UHGV virus genome: UHGV-0096789
Direction: 5' to 3' (one strand)
Origin: a virus
Length of the DNA stretch: 19,581 nucleotides
This document shows positions 5,078 to 15,223 of the stretch, piece after piece. A program made the position numbers and the translations under genes. Position 1 is the stretch's first letter; each line of letters begins with the position of its first letter. The notes below the pieces were generated by a model, which was not told the origin of the DNA, searched no databases, and saw only the letters and a list, made by a program, of their open reading frames with translations.

Positions 5078-5095
5078 CGCGGTGGTGTTGTCGGA
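5078..5095. promoter_or_regulatory. TGT-N12-ACA dyad (Ogr/Delta-type late activator site) in the O/P divergent promoter region
   Basis: TGTcggagcgttgcgACA at 5078-5095, inside the extended inverted repeat TTGTCG...CGACAA; about 85 bp upstream of the P start codon, consistent with a -55-centred activator site. Confidence 0.45.
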
Positions 5096-5171
5096 GCGTT
5101 GCGACAAAGTGCGGTGTGAATACAGGCGGGACGTGCGCGTGTAGCCTGTATGGCAGGAGGTGACAGACGGC

Positions 5172-6914
5172 ATGATTCAGGACGCATTCATCAGGCTGCG
5201 GGCAAAACAGCTTTACTGGCAGGGGTACCCGCCCGCTGAAATATCGCGGCTGATGGGTATCAGTCAGAACACGATTTATTCGTGGAAAAAACGCGACGGA
5301 TGGGATGAGACGCCGCCCGTGGAGCGGGTCACGCAGTCGATTGATGCGCGGCTGGTTCAGCTGACCTCAAAAGCTGAAAAGAGCGGTGGTGATTTTAAGG
5401 AAATCGACCTGCTTACGCGCCAGCTCGCAAAACTGAATGACAGCAAGGGCGGCGCGGAAAAAAGCCCGCGAAAACGAAAGCTGAAAAACCATTTTTCCGA
5501 ATCGCAGGTTGCCGCACTACGTGAACACATCACCGCTCAGCTGGCAGAGCATCAGCGACGCTGGTATGAGGCGCTGGACGTCTGCCGCCGTGCCGGTGTT
5601 GATATTCGCATCATTGTGAAATCCCGACAGATAGGTGCGACCTGGTATTTTGCGCAGGAGGCACTGCTGCGTGCGCTGGATGAGAGCGTGAAATATCCGT
5701 ACCAGCGAAACCAGATTTTTTTGTCAGCCTCACGCCGTCAGGCCTTTCAGTTTAAAAGCGTGATTCAGAAGGCGGCACAGGCTGTGGACGTCGAGCTGAA
5801 AGGCGGTGACAAAATAGTGCTTTCTAACGGCGCGGAACTGCATTTTCTGGGGACATCCGCCGCGACTGCACAGTCATACACGGGCAATCTGTATTTTGAC
5901 GAATTTTTCTGGGTGTCGAACTTCATCACGCTGCGCAAGGTCGCAGGCGCGATGGCCACGCTGAATGGCCTGACGCAGACCTACTTTTCCACGCCGTCAT
6001 CGGAGATGCACGAGGCGTTTCAGTTCTGGAACGGCGCGCGGTGGAATGCAGGGCGACCACGCAGTGAGCGCCGGGAGATTGATGTGTCCCACTGCGCCCT
6101 GAAGAGTGGGGTGCTGTGTCCCGACAGTGCGTGGCGACAAATCGTGACGATTCAGGATGCTGTGGACCTGGGCTGGACGCTTACCAGTATCGACAAAATC
6201 CGCAACATGAACACGCAGGATGAGTTCCGCAATCTCTACATGTGCGAATTTGTCAGCGACGGCGAATCCGCTTTCGACCTTAATGCCCTGCTGGGCTGTG
6301 GCGTGGATGGCTATGACGAGTGGAATGACTGGAAGCCGTTTGCAGCCCGTCCGGTGGGTAATCGTCCGGTGTGGATTGGCTACGACGCTAACGGCAGCAG
6401 CGGTAACGGCGACAGCGGGGCGCTGTCTGTTGTTGTTCCGCCTGCTGTCAGGGGCGGCAAATTCCGCACGGTGGAGACGTTGCAGGTGCAGGGGCTGGAA
6501 TTTGAAGAGCAGGCCCGTGTGATTGAGCAGTTCACGCACAAATACAACGTCCAGCACATTGGTATCGACGTGACCGGCGGTAACGGTGAGGCAGTGTACC
6601 AGATAGTGCGGCGGTTCTGGCCTGCCGCCGTACCGTACACGTTCACGCTGGCATCCAAACGCGCGCTTGTGCTGAAGATGCTGCAGATTATTCGTGCGGG
6701 GCGCTGGGAGTATGACCGGGGCGAACGTGAGCTGGTCAGGGCATTCAACGCTGTGCGCAAGGCAAAAACGGCGGGCGGGGCAATAACGTATGAAACAGAC
6801 CGCACACGCGGCGTGAACCACGGCGACCTCGCGTGGGCAACCATGCTTGCCGTCATTAACGAGCCGCTGGGCGATGAGGATGGAGCAACAGGAATGCGGG
6901 TGATTGAGTTCTGA
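5172..6914 (+). CDS. P: Terminase ATPase (large) subunit (gpP-like)
   Basis: 584-aa ORF; first ATG at 5172 with GGAGG 11 nt upstream (ORF track starts at GTG 5160); divergent from O as in P2; stop overlaps the Q start (TGATG). Confidence 0.9.
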   Translation: MIQDAFIRLRAKQLYWQGYPPAEISRLMGISQNTIYSWKKRDGWDETPPVERVTQSIDARLVQLTSKAEKSGGDFKEIDLLTRQLAKLNDSKGGAEKSPRKRKLKNHFSESQVAALREHITAQLAEHQRRWYEALDVCRRAGVDIRIIVKSRQIGATWYFAQEALLRALDESVKYPYQRNQIFLSASRRQAFQFKSVIQKAAQAVDVELKGGDKIVLSNGAELHFLGTSAATAQSYTGNLYFDEFFWVSNFITLRKVAGAMATLNGLTQTYFSTPSSEMHEAFQFWNGARWNAGRPRSERREIDVSHCALKSGVLCPDSAWRQIVTIQDAVDLGWTLTSIDKIRNMNTQDEFRNLYMCEFVSDGESAFDLNALLGCGVDGYDEWNDWKPFAARPVGNRPVWIGYDANGSSGNGDSGALSVVVPPAVRGGKFRTVETLQVQGLEFEEQARVIEQFTHKYNVQHIGIDVTGGNGEAVYQIVRRFWPAAVPYTFTLASKRALVLKMLQIIRAGRWEYDRGERELVRAFNAVRKAKTAGGAITYETDRTRGVNHGDLAWATMLAVINEPLGDEDGATGMRVIEF

Positions 6915-7963
6915 TGAAAAAACAAAAACGAAAATATTCCCGCCGCGATGACGGCGTGGAGCTGGCAGAGGCACTGCGCCGCCAGCCGTCGTTAAGCGCC
7001 TTCTCGTTCGACGGCCCTTACGATGCGCACGCGCTCGACCTGCTGGATAACGCATACTGCCTGAGTAATGGCAGATACTATGAAACGCCTGTTAACTGGT
7101 ACGGACTGGCGCGGGCATCCCGGCAGACTTCGTGGCATCAGTCGGCGCTGTACTTTAAACGTAACGCACTACTGGGCTGCTTCATTCCGCACCAGCTGCT
7201 CTCCCGGCAGGCGTTCTCCGCCTTTGCGCTGGACTGGTTTGTCTTCGGGAATGCGTTTCTTGAACTGCGCACCAACAGGCTGGGCGGAAAACTGGAACTG
7301 CGGCACGCGCTGGCAAAATACGTCCGTCGTGGTGTTGAGCCGGATGTGTACTGGTTTGTGCAGACGGGCGAGCAGGACCACGAGTTTCGTCAGGGGCGCG
7401 TCTGTCATGTGCTGAACCCTGACATCAACCAGGAGATGTACGGAATGCCGGAATATCTCGGCGGCCTGCTGTCTGCCAGTCTGTCTCACTCGGCGGACCG
7501 CTTCCGCAAACTCTACTATGACAACGGTTCACACGCAGGCTGCATTATTTACGTGGGGGCGGCACAGGTTGACTGCGAAAGTATGCAGGCTCTCGAAAGA
7601 GCGTTGCAGGGCGCAAGAGGCGGTGGGGCATTCAAAAACCTGCTGCTCCAGGCACCGAACGGCGGGAAGGACGGTGTGCAAATCCTGCCGTTCCAGCAGA
7701 TCACCGCCCGGGATGAGTTCATCAACGTGAAGACAGCGTCGCGCGACGATGTGCTGGCGGCGCATCGCGTGCCGCCACAGTTAATGGGGGCGATGCCTTC
7801 CGGTACGGGTTCTTTTGGTGATGTGGAGAAGGCGGCCAGAGTGTTTGCGATCAACGAACTGATGCCGGTGATGGAGGCGATGAAGCACGTTAATGACTGG
7901 CTGGGCGAGGAGGTGATCCGCTTTAACCCTTACGCACTGCTGGATACCCCGCCCACATCCTGA
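6914..7963 (+). CDS. Q: Portal (capsid vertex) protein (gpQ-like)
   Basis: 349-aa ORF translationally coupled to P; size and position match P2 Q. Confidence 0.9.
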   Translation: MKKQKRKYSRRDDGVELAEALRRQPSLSAFSFDGPYDAHALDLLDNAYCLSNGRYYETPVNWYGLARASRQTSWHQSALYFKRNALLGCFIPHQLLSRQAFSAFALDWFVFGNAFLELRTNRLGGKLELRHALAKYVRRGVEPDVYWFVQTGEQDHEFRQGRVCHVLNPDINQEMYGMPEYLGGLLSASLSHSADRFRKLYYDNGSHAGCIIYVGAAQVDCESMQALERALQGARGGGAFKNLLLQAPNGGKDGVQILPFQQITARDEFINVKTASRDDVLAAHRVPPQLMGAMPSGTGSFGDVEKAARVFAINELMPVMEAMKHVNDWLGEEVIRFNPYALLDTPPTS

Positions 7964-7990
7964 CGCGCTCCGCTTGTCTGCTGCTTCGCC

Positions 7991-8021
7991 GGGGCATAAA
8001 AATTTATGCCCCGACTCACCA
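7991..8021. repeat. Perfect hairpin (GGGGCATAAA/TTTATGCCCC) plus CCCCGACTCACCA core; left copy of an imperfect direct repeat
   Basis: Inverted repeat 7991-8012 between the convergent stops of Q (7963) and orf175 (8030); 13-nt core CCCCGACTCACCA at 8009-8021 recurs exactly at 9540-9552. Confidence 0.6.
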
Positions 8022-8029
8022 GCTCCGGC

Positions 8030-8557
8030 TTAACGAAGTGCAAAAGGAGTTCGTTTTTTCAGGCGGGCGGCGATGTGTCTTTTCATGCTTTTCGTCACCT
8101 CCGTCCATTTCCTGTCTTCCGGCGCAGTAATACTCACGCGAACAGAAATATCATCCTCCACGGTGACTTTCAGCGTGGTGCGAGCTTCGTTCACCGAATG
8201 CAGCTCAAACGCAACAACAATATCAACCGGCTCAATACCCGACAGTGATTCAATCCATGTACGCACGGCCACATGGAAAATACCGTCTGCTGCGACAGGG
8301 ATTTGATTAACAGAACAGGCGCGAAAGTCATCCGCGTTCCGACAGGGCAGGCCTGTTTCCACATAAGGCCGCGACTCGCCGTGTTCGTGTTCGCGGTACA
8401 GTGACGGAAGTCCCAGCCAGTCCTCATAAAACCCGACCAGCCTGCGGGCCTCATCCCGTAAGATTTCAGCGGCCCGACAACGCTTTCTTTCCACATCCCG
8501 GTTGATGCAACACAAATCCTCAAAGTGTCCCACGGATCCTCCTTCTGTTGATGTCAT
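8030..8557 (-). CDS. Hypothetical protein, 175 aa (cargo gene, no family recognised)
   Basis: ORF 8030..8692; start taken at ATG 8557..8555 (MTSTEGGSVGHFEDL...) with AGGA upstream; the 45-aa upstream extension is Cys-rich and lacks an RBS. Confidence 0.55.
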   Translation of the reverse strand: MTSTEGGSVGHFEDLCCINRDVERKRCRAAEILRDEARRLVGFYEDWLGLPSLYREHEHGESRPYVETGLPCRNADDFRACSVNQIPVAADGIFHVAVRTWIESLSGIEPVDIVVAFELHSVNEARTTLKVTVEDDISVRVSITAPEDRKWTEVTKSMKRHIAARLKKRTPFALR

Positions 8558-8953
8558 CTGTATCCTGTCGCGCTCCTCAATGGCGCGGACTGCACCACAC
8601 ACCCAGAACAAGCCACAGGGTGCGAATGAGATCGCGCAATGCACATGATACCCCAACAAAAAACATCGCGTCAGGGGCGCAATCAGCCGCATTTCTGGCG
8701 ATTTCTGAGGATGCTTTCAGCCCCCAAATTGCGGGCTGTTCCCCCGGCACCTGCGCGCAACAAAAACGCGTTTTTTTGTGCACGCACGGATCCTTTACGG
8801 ATCCAGCCGCCACGCGGGCCGGAAGGGTAAAAAGTCGTTCAAAAAAATTGTGCAAATTTGTGCACTATCGTGCAGTGTGCATCGTGCTGTTTTCTGCGCA
8901 AAAAACGGATGGTAAATTTGTTCGTAGCAGGGAAATTTTAATGAGCGCAAGAC
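8558..8953. promoter_or_regulatory. Repeat-rich 396-bp divergent control region between orf175 and the membrane-protein gene
   Basis: Hairpin CAGCCC-N9-GGGCTG (8718-8738); palindrome AAAAACGCGTTTTT (8762-8775); direct repeat ACGGATCC x2 (8786-8793, 8797-8804); five GTGC(A) repeats at 7-10-bp spacing (8850-8887) including inverted half-sites GTGCA-N6-TGCAC. Confidence 0.45.
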
Positions 8954-9484
8954 ATGAAGAAAGATTCATATCCTTATTTGATTTGCATGACTGTTTCAGT
9001 GCTAGGGATTATTTTCCTCTTTTACTGGTGGAGGGCAGATATCTACAGGATTACATATCTTAATTCGCGTATATCCAATTATTACATCTTGTGTAGTATG
9101 GGTATGTCCTTTTTCTTCTCCTTGTTTCTGGTGAAGAGGGGGGGAGTGAAGCAAAGTGGCTGGAAAGGACTGTCGGCATACCTGAAGGTTTATGCTGGCT
9201 CTTGCATTCTTACAGGGATATTCCTGATTATCCCTCTTATGATGGTGACTTATTTTTTACCAGGAGTAACATCATCATATGTTGCACCGTATGAGTATAC
9301 ATCTGGTAGTTCAAGAAGCTGTTCCGGAGCGTTTGTTGATGATCCCGAACTGCATAAAAATATTCTTATTTGCTATCCGTATGGTAACTATGAATATGAC
9401 AATATTATCTATGTTGAAAAGAAAACTAATGCATTGGGCGTTGTTGTGACGTATGCACAGACTGCACGAGACGATGCTGAATAA
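8954..9484 (+). CDS. Small integral membrane protein (3 predicted TM helices plus ~70-aa soluble C-terminal domain), AT-rich cargo gene
   Basis: 176-aa ORF; hydrophobic segments YLICMTVSVLGIIFLFYWW, YYILCSMGMSFFFSLFLV, VYAGSCILTGIFLIIPLMMVTYFL; visibly much lower GC than flanking phage genes; only ORF on the plus strand in the cargo region. Confidence 0.65.
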   Translation: MKKDSYPYLICMTVSVLGIIFLFYWWRADIYRITYLNSRISNYYILCSMGMSFFFSLFLVKRGGVKQSGWKGLSAYLKVYAGSCILTGIFLIIPLMMVTYFLPGVTSSYVAPYEYTSGSSRSCSGAFVDDPELHKNILICYPYGNYEYDNIIYVEKKTNALGVVVTYAQTARDDAE

Positions 9485-9521
9485 GATACTACAGAGATAG
9501 TCCACTTTTTTGTTTATTTGT

Positions 9522-9552
9522 CGGGATAAAAACAAATTACCCCGACTCACCA
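9522..9552. repeat. Right copy of the imperfect ~30-bp direct repeat (CGGGATAAAAACAAATTACCCCGACTCACCA)
   Basis: Shares the exact 13-nt core CCCCGACTCACCA (9540-9552) and an A-rich upstream part with 7991-8021; lies between the convergent ends of the membrane-protein gene and orf127. Confidence 0.55.
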
Positions 9553-9574
9553 TGTATTAATCTTCCGCTTTAAG

Positions 9575-9958
9575 TTAGTATTTTAGTTGCGCTGTCCTGC
9601 TGTGCAGCAAAGCGGCGTGCTTTAATGCGTCCTGTGCTTTCTGGAATTTAAGTGCATAGTCTGTGGCGATTTTTTCCAGTTCAGCGATTCGGTTGTCTTT
9701 GGTTTCCAGCCAATCAAGTAGCGCCAATACTTCAGGATCCCCGACATCCAACACTGTTACGCGTGATTTTTCATAATGTTCGTCGGCAAGAGTTCGGCCA
9801 ATTTTGAAATCTCCATCATCACCATAACCGGAGCAGGCATAAACAACCTGTGCTCCAGATATTCGCTGAATTGACATTTCCTCGCCGCAAATAGGGCATT
9901 TCGGTACTGGCACAGGTGAATAACGTTCACGTAATGCCTGATAGTTGATCTCGCTCAT
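9575..9958 (-). CDS. Hypothetical protein, 127 aa, N-terminal Cys cluster (CPICG...ACSG, zinc-ribbon-like) and helical C-terminus
   Basis: ORF with AAGGAGAA RBS before ATG 9958; co-oriented directly downstream of parR; moderate GC. Confidence 0.6.
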   Translation of the reverse strand: MSEINYQALRERYSPVPVPKCPICGEEMSIQRISGAQVVYACSGYGDDGDFKIGRTLADEHYEKSRVTVLDVGDPEVLALLDWLETKDNRIAELEKIATDYALKFQKAQDALKHAALLHSRTAQLKY

Positions 9959-10021: not shown

Positions 10022-10333
10022 TTATTCAGGAAATAACGCCCGGATATTTCCGGCCATCTGACTGGTTATCTGTGCGGTTGATACTGGCTGTGATGCGGGG
10101 CGTTCTGTCCTGGTTTGTGTCACTGATAACGCTTCATCATCAGCCCATGCAGCTAGTCGGTAAGCCTCTGCCGGATTCATTTTCAGAAGTGCCAGCCCGG
10201 CCAGAAAAGCCACGCGTTGGCCGCTTTTGCGGGCTTCTGGTGTAAGACTGTCCAGCCAGGCACACGCTTCGCTTTCGTTCTTGACTGCGGCTGGCTTCAG
10301 ATAGAAACTTATCCGCTTGGTTGATGTTGTCAT
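10022..10333 (-). CDS. parR: ParR-like partition adaptor / DNA-binding protein
   Basis: 103-aa ORF 4 nt downstream of parM; resembles remembered plasmid R1 ParR (ISFYLKPA vs IAFKLNPD; LDSLTPEARKSGQRVAFLAGLAL vs LDSIPQGERSRLNRAALTAGLAL; C-terminal IRALFPE vs LRSLFPKE). Confidence 0.7.
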   Translation of the reverse strand: MTTSTKRISFYLKPAAVKNESEACAWLDSLTPEARKSGQRVAFLAGLALLKMNPAEAYRLAAWADDEALSVTQTRTERPASQPVSTAQITSQMAGNIRALFPE

Positions 10334-10337
10334 TGGC

Positions 10338-11297
10338 TCACTCCCTGTTCATGTCATGGAGTCCATTAACCAGGGCAAACTGTGGCTCCGGTGTTGTGTG
10401 AATGTTTGCGTTGAGGCCGTAAGCGTCATGTACCGCCGGAGCCACAATCTCCGCCCCACCACCAACAACCATCACCCGACCGTACCCCGAAAAACCCGCC
10501 AGTGCGCGGATCACGCGTTGTTTCAGTGTTTCTTCCTTTTCACGAATAACCGCCATCAGGCTGGCGTAATGCGCGTCATTGTGGATGTGCTGGCGCAGCC
10601 AGGCTTCATCGTGGCGATGTTCGATAATGGTACTGGCGATGTGGTGGCTGGTACGCATACCGTTGGTGGCCATCACCGACAGCACGGCATCGGTCATCAG
10701 TGAAACGCCTACGTGTGGATCGCAAAATACCTGGCTGATACCTGCCAGTTGCCCCTGAACCTTTGCCACATCCAGCGTGGTACCGCCCAAATCCACAATC
10801 AGCAGGGATTCAAACGGACTCATGTCAGCCAGTGCCTTAAAGCCTGCCGGAATGGATTCAGGCATAACCCGCACGTTACGGATAGTGAATGCCTCACCGT
10901 TCTGGTACTCCACCGGGCGCATGACGTTCGCTTTTTTGCGGTTGATGTTGGTCATATCCGGCTGTGCGTTTGTGTCGAAATACTCGCTCAGTGGCAGGGT
11001 GACAACCACATCCACTTCCTGTGGCGTAATACCTGATTTGACCAGCGCATGATGAATGGCAATGACATTCACATCGCTGTACTGGTATTGCGTGTCGGTC
11101 GTCCGGACAAAGCGATCGCTGACCGGATCAAAACCATAGCGCACGCCATCAAGCATGTAGTTCGCGGGCTGCGTGCCACCGAACGGCGCAGACCATTCCG
11201 ACTTGAAGCTGTTCGGGCTGATGGCGTTGCGGCGTTCGCCGTTCTCAGTCCATGCCAGCTTGATGTTGGTGGAGCCGTCGTCGATACAAATTTTCAT
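10338..11297 (-). CDS. parM: ParM/StbA-family actin-like ATPase
   Basis: 319-aa ORF with actin-fold signatures shared with R1 ParM: MKICIDDGSTNIKLAW, ISPNSFK, QYSDVNVIAIHHAL, RKKAN, FTIRNVRVMPESIPAG, LLIVDLGGTTLD, GVSLMT, FSGYGRVMVVGGGAE, LVNG; AAGGAAAAG RBS. Confidence 0.9.
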   Translation of the reverse strand: MKICIDDGSTNIKLAWTENGERRNAISPNSFKSEWSAPFGGTQPANYMLDGVRYGFDPVSDRFVRTTDTQYQYSDVNVIAIHHALVKSGITPQEVDVVVTLPLSEYFDTNAQPDMTNINRKKANVMRPVEYQNGEAFTIRNVRVMPESIPAGFKALADMSPFESLLIVDLGGTTLDVAKVQGQLAGISQVFCDPHVGVSLMTDAVLSVMATNGMRTSHHIASTIIEHRHDEAWLRQHIHNDAHYASLMAVIREKEETLKQRVIRALAGFSGYGRVMVVGGGAEIVAPAVHDAYGLNANIHTTPEPQFALVNGLHDMNRE

Positions 11298-11328: not shown

Positions 11329-11440
11329 TTTACGGGATTCTGAAATCCCGCTTTTGCCTGTTTTGTGCGCGCTTCATATATCGCGGCGCGTTTTTTGCTC
11401 ATTTACGGGATTTGTGAATCCCGTTTCTGTCTGTTTTTTG
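11329..11440. repeat. Two ~40-bp direct repeats, each a hairpin core (ACGGGATT-N4/5-AATCCCG) plus T-rich tail, spanning the A 3' end and the A-parM spacer
   Basis: R1 TTTACGGGATTCTGAAATCCCGCTTTTGCCTGTTTTGTG (11329-11367) and R2 TTTACGGGATTTGTGAATCCCGTTTCTGTCTGTTTTTTG (11402-11440); R2 lies inside the A reading frame, R1 between the A stop and parM start. Confidence 0.6.
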
Positions 11441-14214
11441 TTTCCACTGGTCAGGCCACCCCGCAGCAGGTCTGCTTTGCGGCGGGCGCGTTCAGTGGTT
11501 TCACTGATTCTCTGTGCGTGCTCTGCGTCGCGGATGGCGCGCAGCATGTCAGAAAGCACGGTAACGGGTGTTTTCATGGTGTTCTGGTCTTGCTGAAGTG
11601 TGGATGCCAGGCGTGCGGCGGCTTCAGGGTCTGATGCCCCCAGCTGTTCCAGATAGCTGGCGACCGGGTTATGGCGGATCTCCGTGCTGCTTACGCCGTG
11701 ATTACGGCTCAGGCGTTGCCAGAGTTGCGTGATTAGGCCGTCCGGGCGGGTATCCGGTTTGCGTACAATTTCAAATCCCTGCGGTGCAATGATGCTGCCG
11801 TCAACGTACAGACTGCCGCCCCGTAACAGGTGCTGCATCTGCTGTTCACCGATATGCAGGCCGAGAGATTCAGCAGACTCCCGCCATTCTTTAGCGAGTA
11901 ACTCGTGGTTATCAGGCAAAGGTCGCGGCTGTTTGCGGCTCTGTGTCCAGTTCTGCATTTCATCGCTGCTGTTTTTTGCCTGTTTGTCACGCAGCGAACG
12001 CATCAGCGCCCGGCGTTCGTGCCGTTTCAGTGAGCGCATCCATTCATTCACTTCAATGCCGTCAGGAATCTGCGGCCACGGTGCTGGCCGTTCTTCCGGC
12101 TGTTCTGTCCCGCTGTTGTCTGTTTCCTGTACACGGGGACAGTTATTGCCACGAGTCCAAGGGGCGGCAGGGCCGCCCTGAAGGTCAAAACCATTTTCGC
12201 GGGAGCTGTCTTCCGCTTCCGGTTTACGTCTTACCAGCTTCCAGTTATCCGGGTGTGTGCACACACGGGAGGATTCCCCGATGAGTGGTGACCAGATCCC
12301 GTAAATCTGTACACTCTGTTCGCCGTAATCGTTCAGCTCATCTGCGAGGTCGTAGGCGGTGCGAATCAGGTAGTCTTTACGTGGAACAAGTACGCCGCCC
12401 TGTTTCTCAATGTAGGTGGCAAAACATCCGGCATCAGCGGCAGCAAGAACCGCATCCATTGCGTCATCCTTCAGCTGTTGTGGGCCTTCCGGGTTGCGTG
12501 CCATCTGGCTGGCAAGGCGGCGCAGTTCACGCCACACCTGACGGGAGGGGATACCAAAGAACTGGAACTGGCGGACCCGGTGAAGGCGCGCCCAGCCGAT
12601 GGCGCGCTCCACGCTCTCGGCCATTGATTTTCCGGTTTCGTGGTCAACGCGTGGCTTGCCCGTTTTCGGGTCGATACCATCCACGGCGCGGCTGTCCAGG
12701 TTCTTTCCGATGTAGGTGGCGATGTAGCTGGTTGGCGTGCCTTTTGAGCCGTCGACGTACTCCGCTTTAAAACGCGGAGTGATGTCATCGCCCAGCTCGT
12801 GGCGGTCTTCCTGAATGGCAATATCGCAGACGTGGGACACGATGGTTTCAATCTCGTCCGGATGTGCAAAGACCATCATATGCCAGTGCACAGTGCCGTC
12901 ATGGTGAGGCTCCACCGTGCGGATGCCATACCAGCGAAGACCGTCGCGGTTCAGTTTTTTGCGGACCGCCGCAAAAAACGTGTTAACCAGGTAATCGCTG
13001 GAGTCGCGCATGGTGGCCCCGTTCCATTTGGGATTCGGATGACCGTTCTCCGTTGTTGCGTGGTATTTTGACGGGCAGGTGACAGTCAGAAACACCGCTC
13101 TGTCGCCACGGGCTTCGGCCAGAAGTTCCAGCCCCTTCATGGTGGCCATCATTTCTGCCTTACGGTGAACCGGGTTACTTACTCCCGCGTAATAAACCGT
13201 CTCGAGATCAATCGTGAACCCGTCTTCATTTTCCAGCATGAAACTTTTCAGGAAATCGCGAGTTTTCTCGCGCTGTGCGCGAAACTCGCTTAACGCGTCC
13301 TGGCTCAGATAGGGTGATGTTTTTCTGGAAACCAGACAGGCGGCGCGGAGTTGTTCTTCTCTCCACTCGCAACGTAACAGCCACAGTTTGCGTTTCCACC
13401 ATTCCGCACAGGTCAGGCGAAGGATTGCGCCTGGCAGCAGCTCCGTGTCCGGTTCGTTCCTCCGATCTCTATCTGTTGTCAGTGCGTCATAATGTGGAGG
13501 CATGGCGTGCAGGTGTAACGCCATGCGGGCCAGCATCTGATACGCCTTCAGCGTTACATCCATGGTCAGCTCGCCATCAGTCGCGCCAAAGCCATCGCAG
13601 AGTTTTTCGAAGGTGCTGCTGAACATCGCCGCCGTCATGGTGGCCAGCGTCTGTATCTGGTGCTTGTTAAGCTGCGGCAGGTACAGCAAATCATCCAGGC
13701 GTTCGCGTCCGGCAAGGGCGCGATAACCCCGTGTCAGCCAGCGGCTGTCGGTGCGGTCCAGACGTTCGAATATTTTGCGCAGGGTTCCGCGCGCGTAGCC
13801 CTCTGCTGGTCGACTCTTTTTGCCTTTCTGGCGGTCAGATTCCTGCTTCTTACGTAAAAAAGAGAGGCGGCGGCTCAGTGGTTCACGCAGATAAACAGGT
13901 AGTGCCTTTAGTGTGACAAATGCACGGGCCACCGGGTCTTGTTCTGTTGCCCGGCGCTTACTGATGATGCTCTGTGCCAGCTTTTCACGCTGTCCGGCTT
14001 CCTCAAGGGATGCCATGAGTTTTTTACCCATGGCGGATTGTGCGAAAAAGGCTTCCTCCTTCGCTTCCTGTTCTTCCCGTGCCTTTTTGTCCGCCTCAAG
14101 GTAGTAACGGATGGCGCGTTGCAGGTCGGTTTCAGTTTCCTGACTGCGCTCCGTAAATCTGGCCGGATCAATGGCTGGCCGTGGTTCATTCCAGCTCCAT
14201 GCAAACTCACTCAT
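11374..14214 (-). CDS. A: Replication initiation endonuclease (gpA-like rolling-circle initiator), with a long C-terminal extension
   Basis: ORF 11374..14241 (track starts at GTG); first ATG at 14214 overlaps the upstream gene stop (ATGA); conserved core FLTVTCPSKYH...YGIRTVEPHHDGTVHWHMMVF matches remembered P2 A; ~946 aa versus ~760 aa for P2 A. Confidence 0.85.
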   Translation of the reverse strand: MSEFAWSWNEPRPAIDPARFTERSQETETDLQRAIRYYLEADKKAREEQEAKEEAFFAQSAMGKKLMASLEEAGQREKLAQSIISKRRATEQDPVARAFVTLKALPVYLREPLSRRLSFLRKKQESDRQKGKKSRPAEGYARGTLRKIFERLDRTDSRWLTRGYRALAGRERLDDLLYLPQLNKHQIQTLATMTAAMFSSTFEKLCDGFGATDGELTMDVTLKAYQMLARMALHLHAMPPHYDALTTDRDRRNEPDTELLPGAILRLTCAEWWKRKLWLLRCEWREEQLRAACLVSRKTSPYLSQDALSEFRAQREKTRDFLKSFMLENEDGFTIDLETVYYAGVSNPVHRKAEMMATMKGLELLAEARGDRAVFLTVTCPSKYHATTENGHPNPKWNGATMRDSSDYLVNTFFAAVRKKLNRDGLRWYGIRTVEPHHDGTVHWHMMVFAHPDEIETIVSHVCDIAIQEDRHELGDDITPRFKAEYVDGSKGTPTSYIATYIGKNLDSRAVDGIDPKTGKPRVDHETGKSMAESVERAIGWARLHRVRQFQFFGIPSRQVWRELRRLASQMARNPEGPQQLKDDAMDAVLAAADAGCFATYIEKQGGVLVPRKDYLIRTAYDLADELNDYGEQSVQIYGIWSPLIGESSRVCTHPDNWKLVRRKPEAEDSSRENGFDLQGGPAAPWTRGNNCPRVQETDNSGTEQPEERPAPWPQIPDGIEVNEWMRSLKRHERRALMRSLRDKQAKNSSDEMQNWTQSRKQPRPLPDNHELLAKEWRESAESLGLHIGEQQMQHLLRGGSLYVDGSIIAPQGFEIVRKPDTRPDGLITQLWQRLSRNHGVSSTEIRHNPVASYLEQLGASDPEAAARLASTLQQDQNTMKTPVTVLSDMLRAIRDAEHAQRISETTERARRKADLLRGGLTSGNKKQTETGFTNPVNEQKTRRDI

Positions 14215-14600
14215 GGCTGGTATCCCGTCACGTGCTGCCACTCCTGCGAGAAGAGGGCGGAAAGGCGGTTAAATTCAGCGGTGTATTCACTCAGCGAGGC
14301 ACACCCGCCAGCAGTGTGATGCGCCAGCATTGCCGCAAATACGGAGGCCGGGGAGTCGTAATACGCCAGCAGTGATTCGCCGTGTGGTGTCAGGCAGTGC
14401 AACGCCAGCCCGTGTGGTGTGAAGTCCACGCGGTAGCAGTCGTCTACTGTGAAATAAAGGGTGTCCGCATTCTCCGGTTTTGTGGTGCGTGTTCTGTTGT
14501 CACGACCACGGATGTAGAGATCAAATAATCCCTGAAGAACGGGAGCCAGACGGGTGTCCTGTGTGCGCACCCATCTTGTGAAGTCATGAGCGTCAATCAT
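14211..14600 (-). CDS. Hypothetical early protein, 129 aa, translationally coupled to A
   Basis: ORF with stop overlapping the A start; AAAGAGAA upstream of ATG 14600; no family recognised. Confidence 0.5.
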   Translation of the reverse strand: MIDAHDFTRWVRTQDTRLAPVLQGLFDLYIRGRDNRTRTTKPENADTLYFTVDDCYRVDFTPHGLALHCLTPHGESLLAYYDSPASVFAAMLAHHTAGGCASLSEYTAEFNRLSALFSQEWQHVTGYQP

Positions 14601-14903: not shown

Positions 14904-15078
14904 GGTGTGGCCTCTTGTGTAGTAAGTTGTGAAAACTCACCATCCAGAGCTGCGAAACTGTGGGTGGCGAGACGTACGAGGTTCGCAGTACCGGCTACAC
15001 AAGAACCCGGCCCGACCGAAGTCGGCCCCGTACGCCCCGCCATAATTCTGGCGCGAAAAAAACGTGGCAATACAGTAC

Positions 15079-15108
15079 GCACAAAAAAACCGCTGGCGCG
15101 GTTGTGCG
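15079..15108 (-). terminator. Minus-strand intrinsic-terminator-like element downstream of orf183
   Basis: On the minus strand: stem CCGC-GCCA-GCGG followed by TTTTTTT, nested in outer inverted repeat CGCACAA/TTGTGCG; ~120 nt after the orf183 stop. Confidence 0.4.
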
Positions 15109-15223
15109 CTTGTGTAGTTAGCAGGCTGCGAAACCCGGCACCCGTTTTATGAGGTGCAGCGGAAATGTAACCTGACTGATTGCGGCATGGCAAGCGGTTT
15201 TTTTGTGTGTACATAGTGGTTAC

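Follow-up and report, generated by a model that had tools for sequence, protein, structure and literature searches.

A probable stand-alone accessory gene of PHROG 5091 between cos and the portal gene of a P88-like prophage

The gene and its slot

The DNA examined here is a window of 19,581 nucleotides, the whole stretch taken from virus genome UHGV-0096789, which is a P88-like (Xuanwuvirus-type) P2-family prophage from E. coli. The nearest phage records to it are Citrobacter phage Shae_phiSM, Escherichia phage Chuche and P88, and a draft E. coli assembly (GCA_050551345.1, hereafter L039) matches the window with 99.99% identity over 8.5 kb. Our subject is a minus-strand gene contained in the open reading frame (ORF) at 8030-8557, whose product belongs to the protein family PHROG 5091. 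The gene is transcribed inward from the cos side toward the portal gene Q and ends at a stem-loop that it has in common with Q. By its anatomy it is, in our assessment, very probably a stand-alone moron in the slot between cosL and Q.

The ORF described in an initial annotation of this DNA is intact and corresponds to a protein of 175 amino acids (aa) read from an ATG at 8557. The encoded protein matches phrog_5091 at E values of 2.9e-32 to 6e-32, with residues 11-173 aligned to profile positions 4-162 of 164. Compared with eight relatives, its ratio of nonsynonymous to synonymous divergence (dN/dS, by the Nei-Gojobori method) is 0.21-0.28. By these two sequence measures the gene is real and coding, and is under purifying selection.

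The 5′ end of the gene was probably placed 24 nucleotides (nt) too far upstream. All of the diverged homologues start with ATG-AGC-CAC-TTT (MSHF...) after a Shine-Dalgarno sequence, and the codon of the window that aligns with this start is the GTG at 8533, which has the Shine-Dalgarno sequence AAGGAGG (8544-8538) 4 nt ahead of it. Proteins of the relatives are 164-169 aa long. On these grounds we read the most probable product as a protein of 167 aa encoded at 8030-8533 (minus strand, stop codon at 8030-8032), whose GTG start lies 24 nt inside the ATG at 8557. The eight additional in-frame codons of the longer reading (8534-8557, minus strand) align to the untranslated leader of all diverged relatives and are probably 5′ untranslated region carrying AAGGAGG. 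Sequence 5′ of the GTG is unrelated from lineage to lineage.

Other readings of this DNA were considered and rejected. The homologue starts argue against the 175-aa form, and they also argue against a 220-aa form, annotated in strain TUM9803, for which the same frame is open further to an ATG at 8692; the extension of this longer form is not conserved in relatives. Two plus-strand ORFs that overlap the gene, at 8006-8248 and 8073-8306, found no support.

The gene occupies a variable module that extends from 8029 to about 8659, as judged from blastn breakpoints against relatives. Homology with relatives that lack the gene stops at 8026-8028 and resumes at 8660-8743. On the left, the slot is anchored by the conserved portal gene Q (6914-7963, plus strand), which is identified by annotated homologues in P88, Chuche and E. 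coli prophages and by a Pfam Phage_portal match in L039; the terminase large-subunit gene P (5160-6914, plus strand) has annotated homologues in the same phages and prophages. The gene lies 67 bp from the stop codon of Q and 186 bp from the cos core described below. Where the gene is lacking, E. coli strain 135 has just 119 bp in the slot, and P88 and Chuche have roughly 240 bp there, unrelated in sequence and including an ORF of 42 aa.

Two properties characteristic of morons are evident from these comparisons. The gene is present or absent between the same flanks, being missing from strain 135, P88 and Chuche, and its composition is unlike that of the adjoining core genes. Its overall GC content is 52.7%, and its GC content at third codon positions (GC3) is 0.52, versus 0.67-0.70 for P and Q and 0.40 for the neighbouring membrane-protein gene. 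The earlier impression that its GC content resembles that of the phage backbone thus holds only roughly, as its GC3 value falls between those of the backbone and the membrane-protein gene. The gene also has the location of hotspot cargo, lying beside cos in the interval between gpA and gpQ where the cos-proximal hotspot of P2-like phages has been placed (PMC9122126).

Upstream regions from 11 loci were aligned to look for expression signals. Other lineages keep a promoter-like element, TTGCnn, 17 nt, CA(G/C/A)AAT, about 30 nt upstream of the start codon, though the surrounding sequence differs. The window has CAGGAT aligned with the -10 hexamer of this element (8562-8567, minus strand), which is promoter-like by sequence, and in this lineage the spacing to the -35 element has been lost. 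A weak alternative sigma-70-like match (CTGACG, 18 nt, TATCAT; 8645-8674, minus strand) was the only hit of a consensus scan of the region, which gave fewer hits than expected by chance. No Ogr-type TGT-N12-ACA box was found within 5106-9442, the nearest being at 5089-5106, upstream of P; the gene accordingly lacks the dyad, about 55 nt before the transcription start, of P2 late genes activated by Ogr or delta.

At its 3′ end, the gene meets a strong stem-loop located between the convergent stop codons of Q and the gene (7980-8023). This inverted repeat has predicted folding energies of -23.8 and -30.5 kcal/mol (z -4.2 and -5.4), matches P2 tQ in position and is presumed to be a shared terminator. 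An exact 13-mer, CCCCGACTCACCA, occurs on the plus strand at 8009-8021 and again at 9540-9552, in each case directly 3′ of a hairpin (the first after Q, the second after the membrane-protein gene). This 13-mer was present in two copies in 0 of 200 shuffles; it may be a marker of joints between modules or belong to a shared terminator cassette.

The loss of promoter-like spacing, the GTG rather than ATG start and the rarity of the allele, which is present in 4 of 5426 complete E. coli genomes, would be expected if the gene were a decaying or non-functional remnant in the window lineage, its ORF no longer making protein. Against this, no copy has a broken frame, even copies with 97% identity give a dN/dS of 0.24-0.28, and a strong AAGGAGG stands 4 nt before the GTG. 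Moreover, at least two prophages of clearly distinct background, L039 and L040 (95.6% DNA identity), have retained an identical protein. We therefore consider decay very improbable.

The cos region and the neighbouring membrane-protein gene

On its right, the gene faces an AT-rich gene (8954-9484, plus strand; GC 39%) that encodes a 176-aa protein with three predicted transmembrane segments and matches phrog_1416 at E 2.6e-45. The three hydrophobic segments are followed by a C-terminal domain of about 85 aa, to which the phrog_1416 match corresponds. This gene is annotated as frameshifted in strain 135. The head-to-head layout of the two genes, with a gap of 396 bp, is as the initial annotation described it, and it had been read there as a shared control region of a regulator/effector or two-component defence pair.

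The gap, however, contains the conserved cos core of P88-like phages (8743-8876), which is 90-98% identical to the corresponding sequence of P88_4B11, Chuche and the prophage loci L003-L006, L014 and L016-L019, and in which cleavage presumably occurs at about 8800-8830. The linear P88_4B11 record (LR595891) terminates within this core, at a point corresponding to about 8827, and the cos sites of P2 and phiCTX likewise lie between Q and right-end cargo. The start of record NC_049343 is not at cos. No significant BLAST similarity was found between the P2 cos sequence and the P88-type core, and so the presumed cos assignment rests on position, conservation and the terminus of one linear record. 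With the cos core inside the supposed control region, the two genes would stand at opposite chromosome ends in virion DNA, the 167-aa gene first at the left end and the membrane-protein gene last at the right end, and would be adjacent only in the circular or integrated form.

All relatives with other right-end cargo lose homology to the window at 8874-8878, a point between the two genes that coincides with the right-hand limit of the cos core. This sharp, recurrent recombination breakpoint falls about 50 bp rightward of the region in which cos is presumably cut and fits the idea of cos-end recombination discussed in PMC9122126.

Nor are the two genes inherited together. Among the 5426 complete E. 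coli genomes, the membrane-protein gene is present in 160 and the window allele of the PHROG 5091 gene in 4, with no overlap, and none of these genomes covers at least 80% of the interval 7900-9600. Each gene is thus found without the other, and their combination recurs only in L039 and in one further draft assembly, L043. The identical 175-aa reading is found in L040 adjoining genes for an AAA ATPase and an S8 peptidase, and alleles of 90-97% identity adjoin either an AAA ATPase with a DNA adenine methylase (Dam; L005) or small genes, Ead-type ones among them (L004, L014, L042 and L044). Family members in lambdoid and other distant contexts have no comparable membrane-gene neighbour.

The case for a two-gene regulator/effector or defence pair with one control region thus consists of the head-to-head arrangement, its recurrence in the near-identical L039 and in L043, and the location of both genes within the cos-proximal hotspot. 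It must be set against the cos core and breakpoint between the genes, the different cargo found beside identical or near-identical proteins, the genome counts and the missing neighbour in distant family members. Pairing is largely refuted by the lack of co-inheritance, and we rate it as the least probable of the explanations considered here. The membrane-protein gene is independent cargo of the right-end (gpA-side) hotspot slot and no partner of the PHROG 5091 gene.

This outcome exposes a trap for the reading of cos phages from sequence. What looks like a shared divergent promoter region beside a portal gene may be the packaging site, and the genes flanking such a cos region can be unrelated cargo from two separate slots.

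Two of the alternative right-end cargoes deserve mention in their own right. The AAA ATPase and S8 peptidase genes of L040 (302-3630), which lie beside the identical allele, resemble IetAS. In L005 (5085-7645), the AAA ATPase and DNA adenine methylase genes lie beside an allele 97% identical to that of the window.

Distribution, evolution and predicted structure of the family

PHROG 5091 is restricted to prophages of Enterobacterales. When 1.84 billion cluster representatives were searched exhaustively with HMMER, only 9 family members were returned, and profile searches of a collection of 5.8 billion sequences returned 29-41 clusters, all from Enterobacterales and all labelled ‘hypothetical’. 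The genera represented are Escherichia, Salmonella, Citrobacter, Yersinia, Serratia, Hafnia, Pantoea, Rahnella, Cedecea, Xenorhabdus, Providencia and Symbiopectobacterium. A tblastn search of 50,697 phage records with the window protein and with family member P0010 gave no match; with these records, the lambdoid member P0028 was the sole query to detect the common E. coli allele discussed below. Likewise, a scan of GTDB species-representative genomes with the P2-type alignment found no relative.

In P2-like loci from IMG/VR, homologues with 30-94% identity lie beside the portal gene and converge with it in 15 of 15 cases, and 14 of these have a gap of about 25-90 bp between the gene and Q. The exception is L015, whose portal has diverged (31% identity); here the family member comes after StbB, and about 600 bp separate it from the portal gene. 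Where the cos core is detectable in these loci, it is located 200-300 bp upstream of the gene.

The slot holds three alleles that are mutually only about 20-55% identical, and many relatives are without the gene, having lost it or never had it. The common allele is WP_000236495 (174 aa; phrog_5091 E 1.4e-67), which occupies the slot in phages vB_EcoM-705R2 and PhiR44_2 and in 397 of the 5426 complete E. coli genomes (∼7%). Only a stretch of 53 residues is aligned with the window protein by BLASTP, at 38% identity, and over their whole length the two are about 20% identical. The two alleles agree in family, size, slot and orientation and differ in frequency (397 versus 4 genomes) and in insertion point, with WP_000236495 sitting between Q and the hairpin and the window allele beyond the hairpin. 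They thus represent different insertion points in one slot. In L030 (3353-3424 and 3492-4016) and L038 (2862-2933 and 3001-3525), the common allele is located between Q and the Q-terminator hairpin, 14 bp from Q.

Substitution rates offer a view of how long the gene has resided in this backbone. At about 55% protein identity, the synonymous divergence (dS) of the gene is 1.4-1.6, about equal to the 1.5-1.8 of Q, while its nonsynonymous divergence (dN) is twice that of Q (0.35 versus 0.17); dN/dS is 0.21-0.28 for the gene and 0.06-0.15 for Q. Equal dS together with doubled dN indicates that, among P2-type members of the family, gene and backbone have been inherited together, with the gene changing more quickly than the portal.

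Such a fixed address invites the explanation that the gene is a lineage-specific phage housekeeping accessory for packaging or head assembly, serving for instance as a cos, terminase or portal helper. It is found beside Q in all 15 P2-like loci down to 30% identity, its synonymous divergence equals that of Q, a deeply divergent allele holds the same slot in 397 of 5426 genomes, and the family also occurs in late regions of other phage types. On the other hand, the gene is absent from P88, P88_4B11, Chuche and P2, which have the same Q and cos, and the strain 135 slot measures only 119 bp. Packaging machinery is unrelated in the lambdoid and E217-like phages that also carry the family, neither an ATPase nor a DNA-binding signature was found, transcription runs opposite to the late operon with no Ogr box, and the common and window alleles are inserted on different sides of the Q hairpin. 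We judge a packaging helper to be improbable. The initial annotation had offered as its second suggestion a conserved phage gene near the packaging end; this was closer to the truth with respect to the fixed position beside Q, but the gene is not universal, as P2, P88, Chuche and strain 135 all lack it, and no known virion or packaging role emerged that would have overturned the idea of an accessory gene.

Beyond P2-like phages, the family is found in lambdoid prophages of Salmonella, Yersinia, Serratia, Hafnia and Pantoea, where the gene is situated in the interval bounded by the genes for antiterminator Q and the holin. There it is preceded by a tR′-like hairpin, and in the Yersinia and Serratia loci L010, L012 and L013 a second hairpin follows the gene. 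The slot between antiterminator Q and holin is the position of stx in Stx phages. One Xenorhabdus copy is located inside an E217-like tail module. No neighbouring gene is conserved across the contexts of the family. In three Salmonella loci (L007-L009, 6829-8139), an IS4 transposase gene, the family member and then a gene for a 436-aa Peptidase_M4_C protein are arranged between the antiterminator region and the holin gene.

The protein had been described as belonging to an unrecognised family. It has in fact been catalogued already as PHROG 5091, which all 26 aligned relatives match, although PHROG 5091 itself is functionally uncharacterised. Pfam, NCBIfam and PADLOC gave no match for the window protein and revealed no helix-turn-helix, nuclease or ATPase motif, in agreement with the initial annotation, and Pfam gave no match for the 26 relatives either. 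A sequence search of the PDB with the family profile produced only a chance match (E 0.67), and a literature search for phrog_5091 found no mention. The product of about 167 aa is soluble and near-neutral (isoelectric point ∼6.5), with neither a signal peptide nor a transmembrane segment.

Structure prediction, which the initial annotation had proposed as a check, yielded a confident alpha+beta model. A prediction from only 6 close sequences was unusable (predicted local distance difference test score, pLDDT, of 47), and an AlphaFold2 model built with 26 sequences (pLDDT 85.4; predicted template modelling score, pTM, 0.81) was used instead. Its elements are a helix at 11-47, short strands within 54-70, four long antiparallel strands within 93-142 and a helix at 147-168. 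The structural analogues named for this model are the actin capping protein beta subunit, the FP domains of PI31 and Fbxo7, and type III secretion chaperones, and the modelled fold appears to be without a convincing relative.

Five residues are invariant across the family (L48, L50, Y65, G69 and F78) and nine are near-invariant (A37, L40, Y44, P51, G60, V66, T100, V154 and K159). Conservation is highest in the segment 44-70 and lowest in the 71-92 loop and the later strands. The invariant residues are mainly hydrophobic, glycine or proline, and most are structural. No conserved catalytic residues were found, and nothing in the pattern of conservation points to an active site.

Possible roles and known counterparts

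The explanation that we favour, at odds only somewhat better than even, is that the gene is a self-contained accessory gene (moron) of a P88-like prophage whose product is a binding protein in phage-phage or phage-host conflict. The protein would work by itself, binding another protein and not catalysing a reaction, and would probably serve as a dimer-type scaffold. Its gene would be driven by its own sigma-70 promoter, in the lysogen as well, and would share its terminator with Q. A role in conflict is suggested by the occurrence of the family in defence-hotspot and stx-type slots, by its faster protein evolution and by the existence of several divergent alleles. The functional class is far less certain than the anatomy.

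Within this framework, exclusion of, or abortive infection against, competing phages or satellites ranks first, as a possibility that falls clearly short of being probable. Placed second and rather unlikely is a part in counter-defence or host takeover, and a packaging-related accessory role comes third and is improbable. Other forms of lysogenic conversion make up the remainder. These functional estimates overlap with those for the rival explanations that were scored separately, and are not meant to add up to a whole.

Several observations weigh against the favoured explanation. The conflict role is drawn from location, evolution and alleles, and for every family member function is something that we infer. 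PADLOC gave no match for the window protein or its 26 relatives, so that homology to a known defence protein, which hotspot cargo might show, was not seen. WP_000236495 appears 167 times as ‘hypothetical’ in Table S5 of the survey of P2 loci (PMC9122126), and the accessions searched are absent from the other supplementary files of that paper that were examined. Synonymous divergence equal to that of Q suggests long vertical residence, unlike the rapid swapping of hotspot defence cargo. The lambdoid members stand at the head of the late operon, a placement for which expression in the lytic cycle would account at least as well as expression in the lysogen. With respect to the proposed expression signals, the stem-loop at 7980-8023 has no U-tract and was not called by a terminator scan, and expression in the window lineage may be low, given the lost promoter spacing and the GTG start.

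Exclusion or abortive infection fits poorly with two of these points in particular, namely the placement in the lambdoid late operon and the vertical co-divergence with Q. A rival explanation posits a counter-defence or host-takeover protein that acts in lytic growth as a small inhibitor binding a host defence or housekeeping protein, and that is possibly packaged or made late. We regard this explanation as doubtful, more so than exclusion.

A bolder form of the conflict proposal, to which we likewise give little weight, holds that PHROG 5091 is an unrecognised single-protein immunity or conflict family with a fold unseen in solved structures. Fixed beside cos and the portal gene in P2-like phages and before the lysis genes in lambdoid phages, its members would bind a protein of a competing phage or P4-type satellite. 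If this were true, the divergence of the alleles (∼20-55% identity beside portals that are ∼70-76% identical) would represent target-driven diversification.

The anatomy of the locus can be compared with known systems on firmer ground. The closest parallel is ctx of phiCTX, a P2-like Pseudomonas phage (NC_003278), which has cosL, a promoter, one accessory gene directed toward Q, terminators, and convergent Q and P in that order; the window locus has the same arrangement, with a putative promoter and a presumed terminator. Both ctx and the window gene are non-essential insertions in the cosL-Q slot. This position has been suggested to be a hotspot for foreign genes (PMC5694545), and P2 carries only 187 bp there. 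The products differ, as ctx encodes a secreted pore-forming toxin and the window protein is cytoplasmic, and the two have no sequence or fold relationship.

A second comparison is with P2 old and tin and the gpA-gpQ hotspot (Rousset et al. 2022, PMC9122126), which occupy the same hypervariable interval by cos. Like old and tin, the window gene would form its own transcription unit apart from the early and late operons. However, old, tin and most hotspot cargo are on the gpA (right-end) side of cos, whereas the window gene is on the Q (left-end) side; unlike swapped hotspot cargo it has co-diverged with Q, and it matches no known defence hidden Markov model.

Morons in the sense of Hendrix and Juhala include bor and lom of lambda, HK97 gp15 and the sopE cassette common to P2-like and lambdoid Salmonella phages. 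The window gene resembles these classical cases in being a single extra gene that is present or absent between conserved flanks, with a different composition, promoter-like and terminator-like elements, and relatives that occupy typical moron positions in unrelated phage families. It differs from them in that its promoter and terminator are only predicted.

In position and architecture, the gene corresponds among enterobacteria to the ctx moron of phiCTX and belongs to the hotspot described by Rousset et al. Its sequence marks it as a rare allele of a PHROG that is catalogued but uncharacterised, and it does not constitute a novel type of system. Taken together, members of the family are common and lie within a locus that has already been mined for defence systems, yet they are carried as ‘hypothetical’. 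With its fixed genomic address, its three divergent alleles and a confident structure model that has no close relatives, the family offers an inexpensive and well-defined candidate for screens of phage challenge, anti-defence and satellite interference.

The remaining features of the window lie to the right of the membrane-protein gene. An Ead/Ea22-like gene (9575-9958, minus strand) is followed by a plasmid-type partition pair, ParM/StbA (319 aa) and StbB (103 aa), at 10022-11297 on the minus strand, between gpA and the cos-proximal cargo. This ParM/StbB pair is kept in P88-like prophages and phages. The replication endonuclease gene gpA occupies 11374-14241 (minus strand). An Rfam search gave no match within 7900-9600 and, in the early region, identified two RNAs above gathering score: a C4 antisense RNA (RF01695, 83 bits) at 14960-15047 on the minus strand and, adjoining it, the Hfq-binding RNA isrK (RF01394, 66 bits) at 15083-15157 on the same strand.

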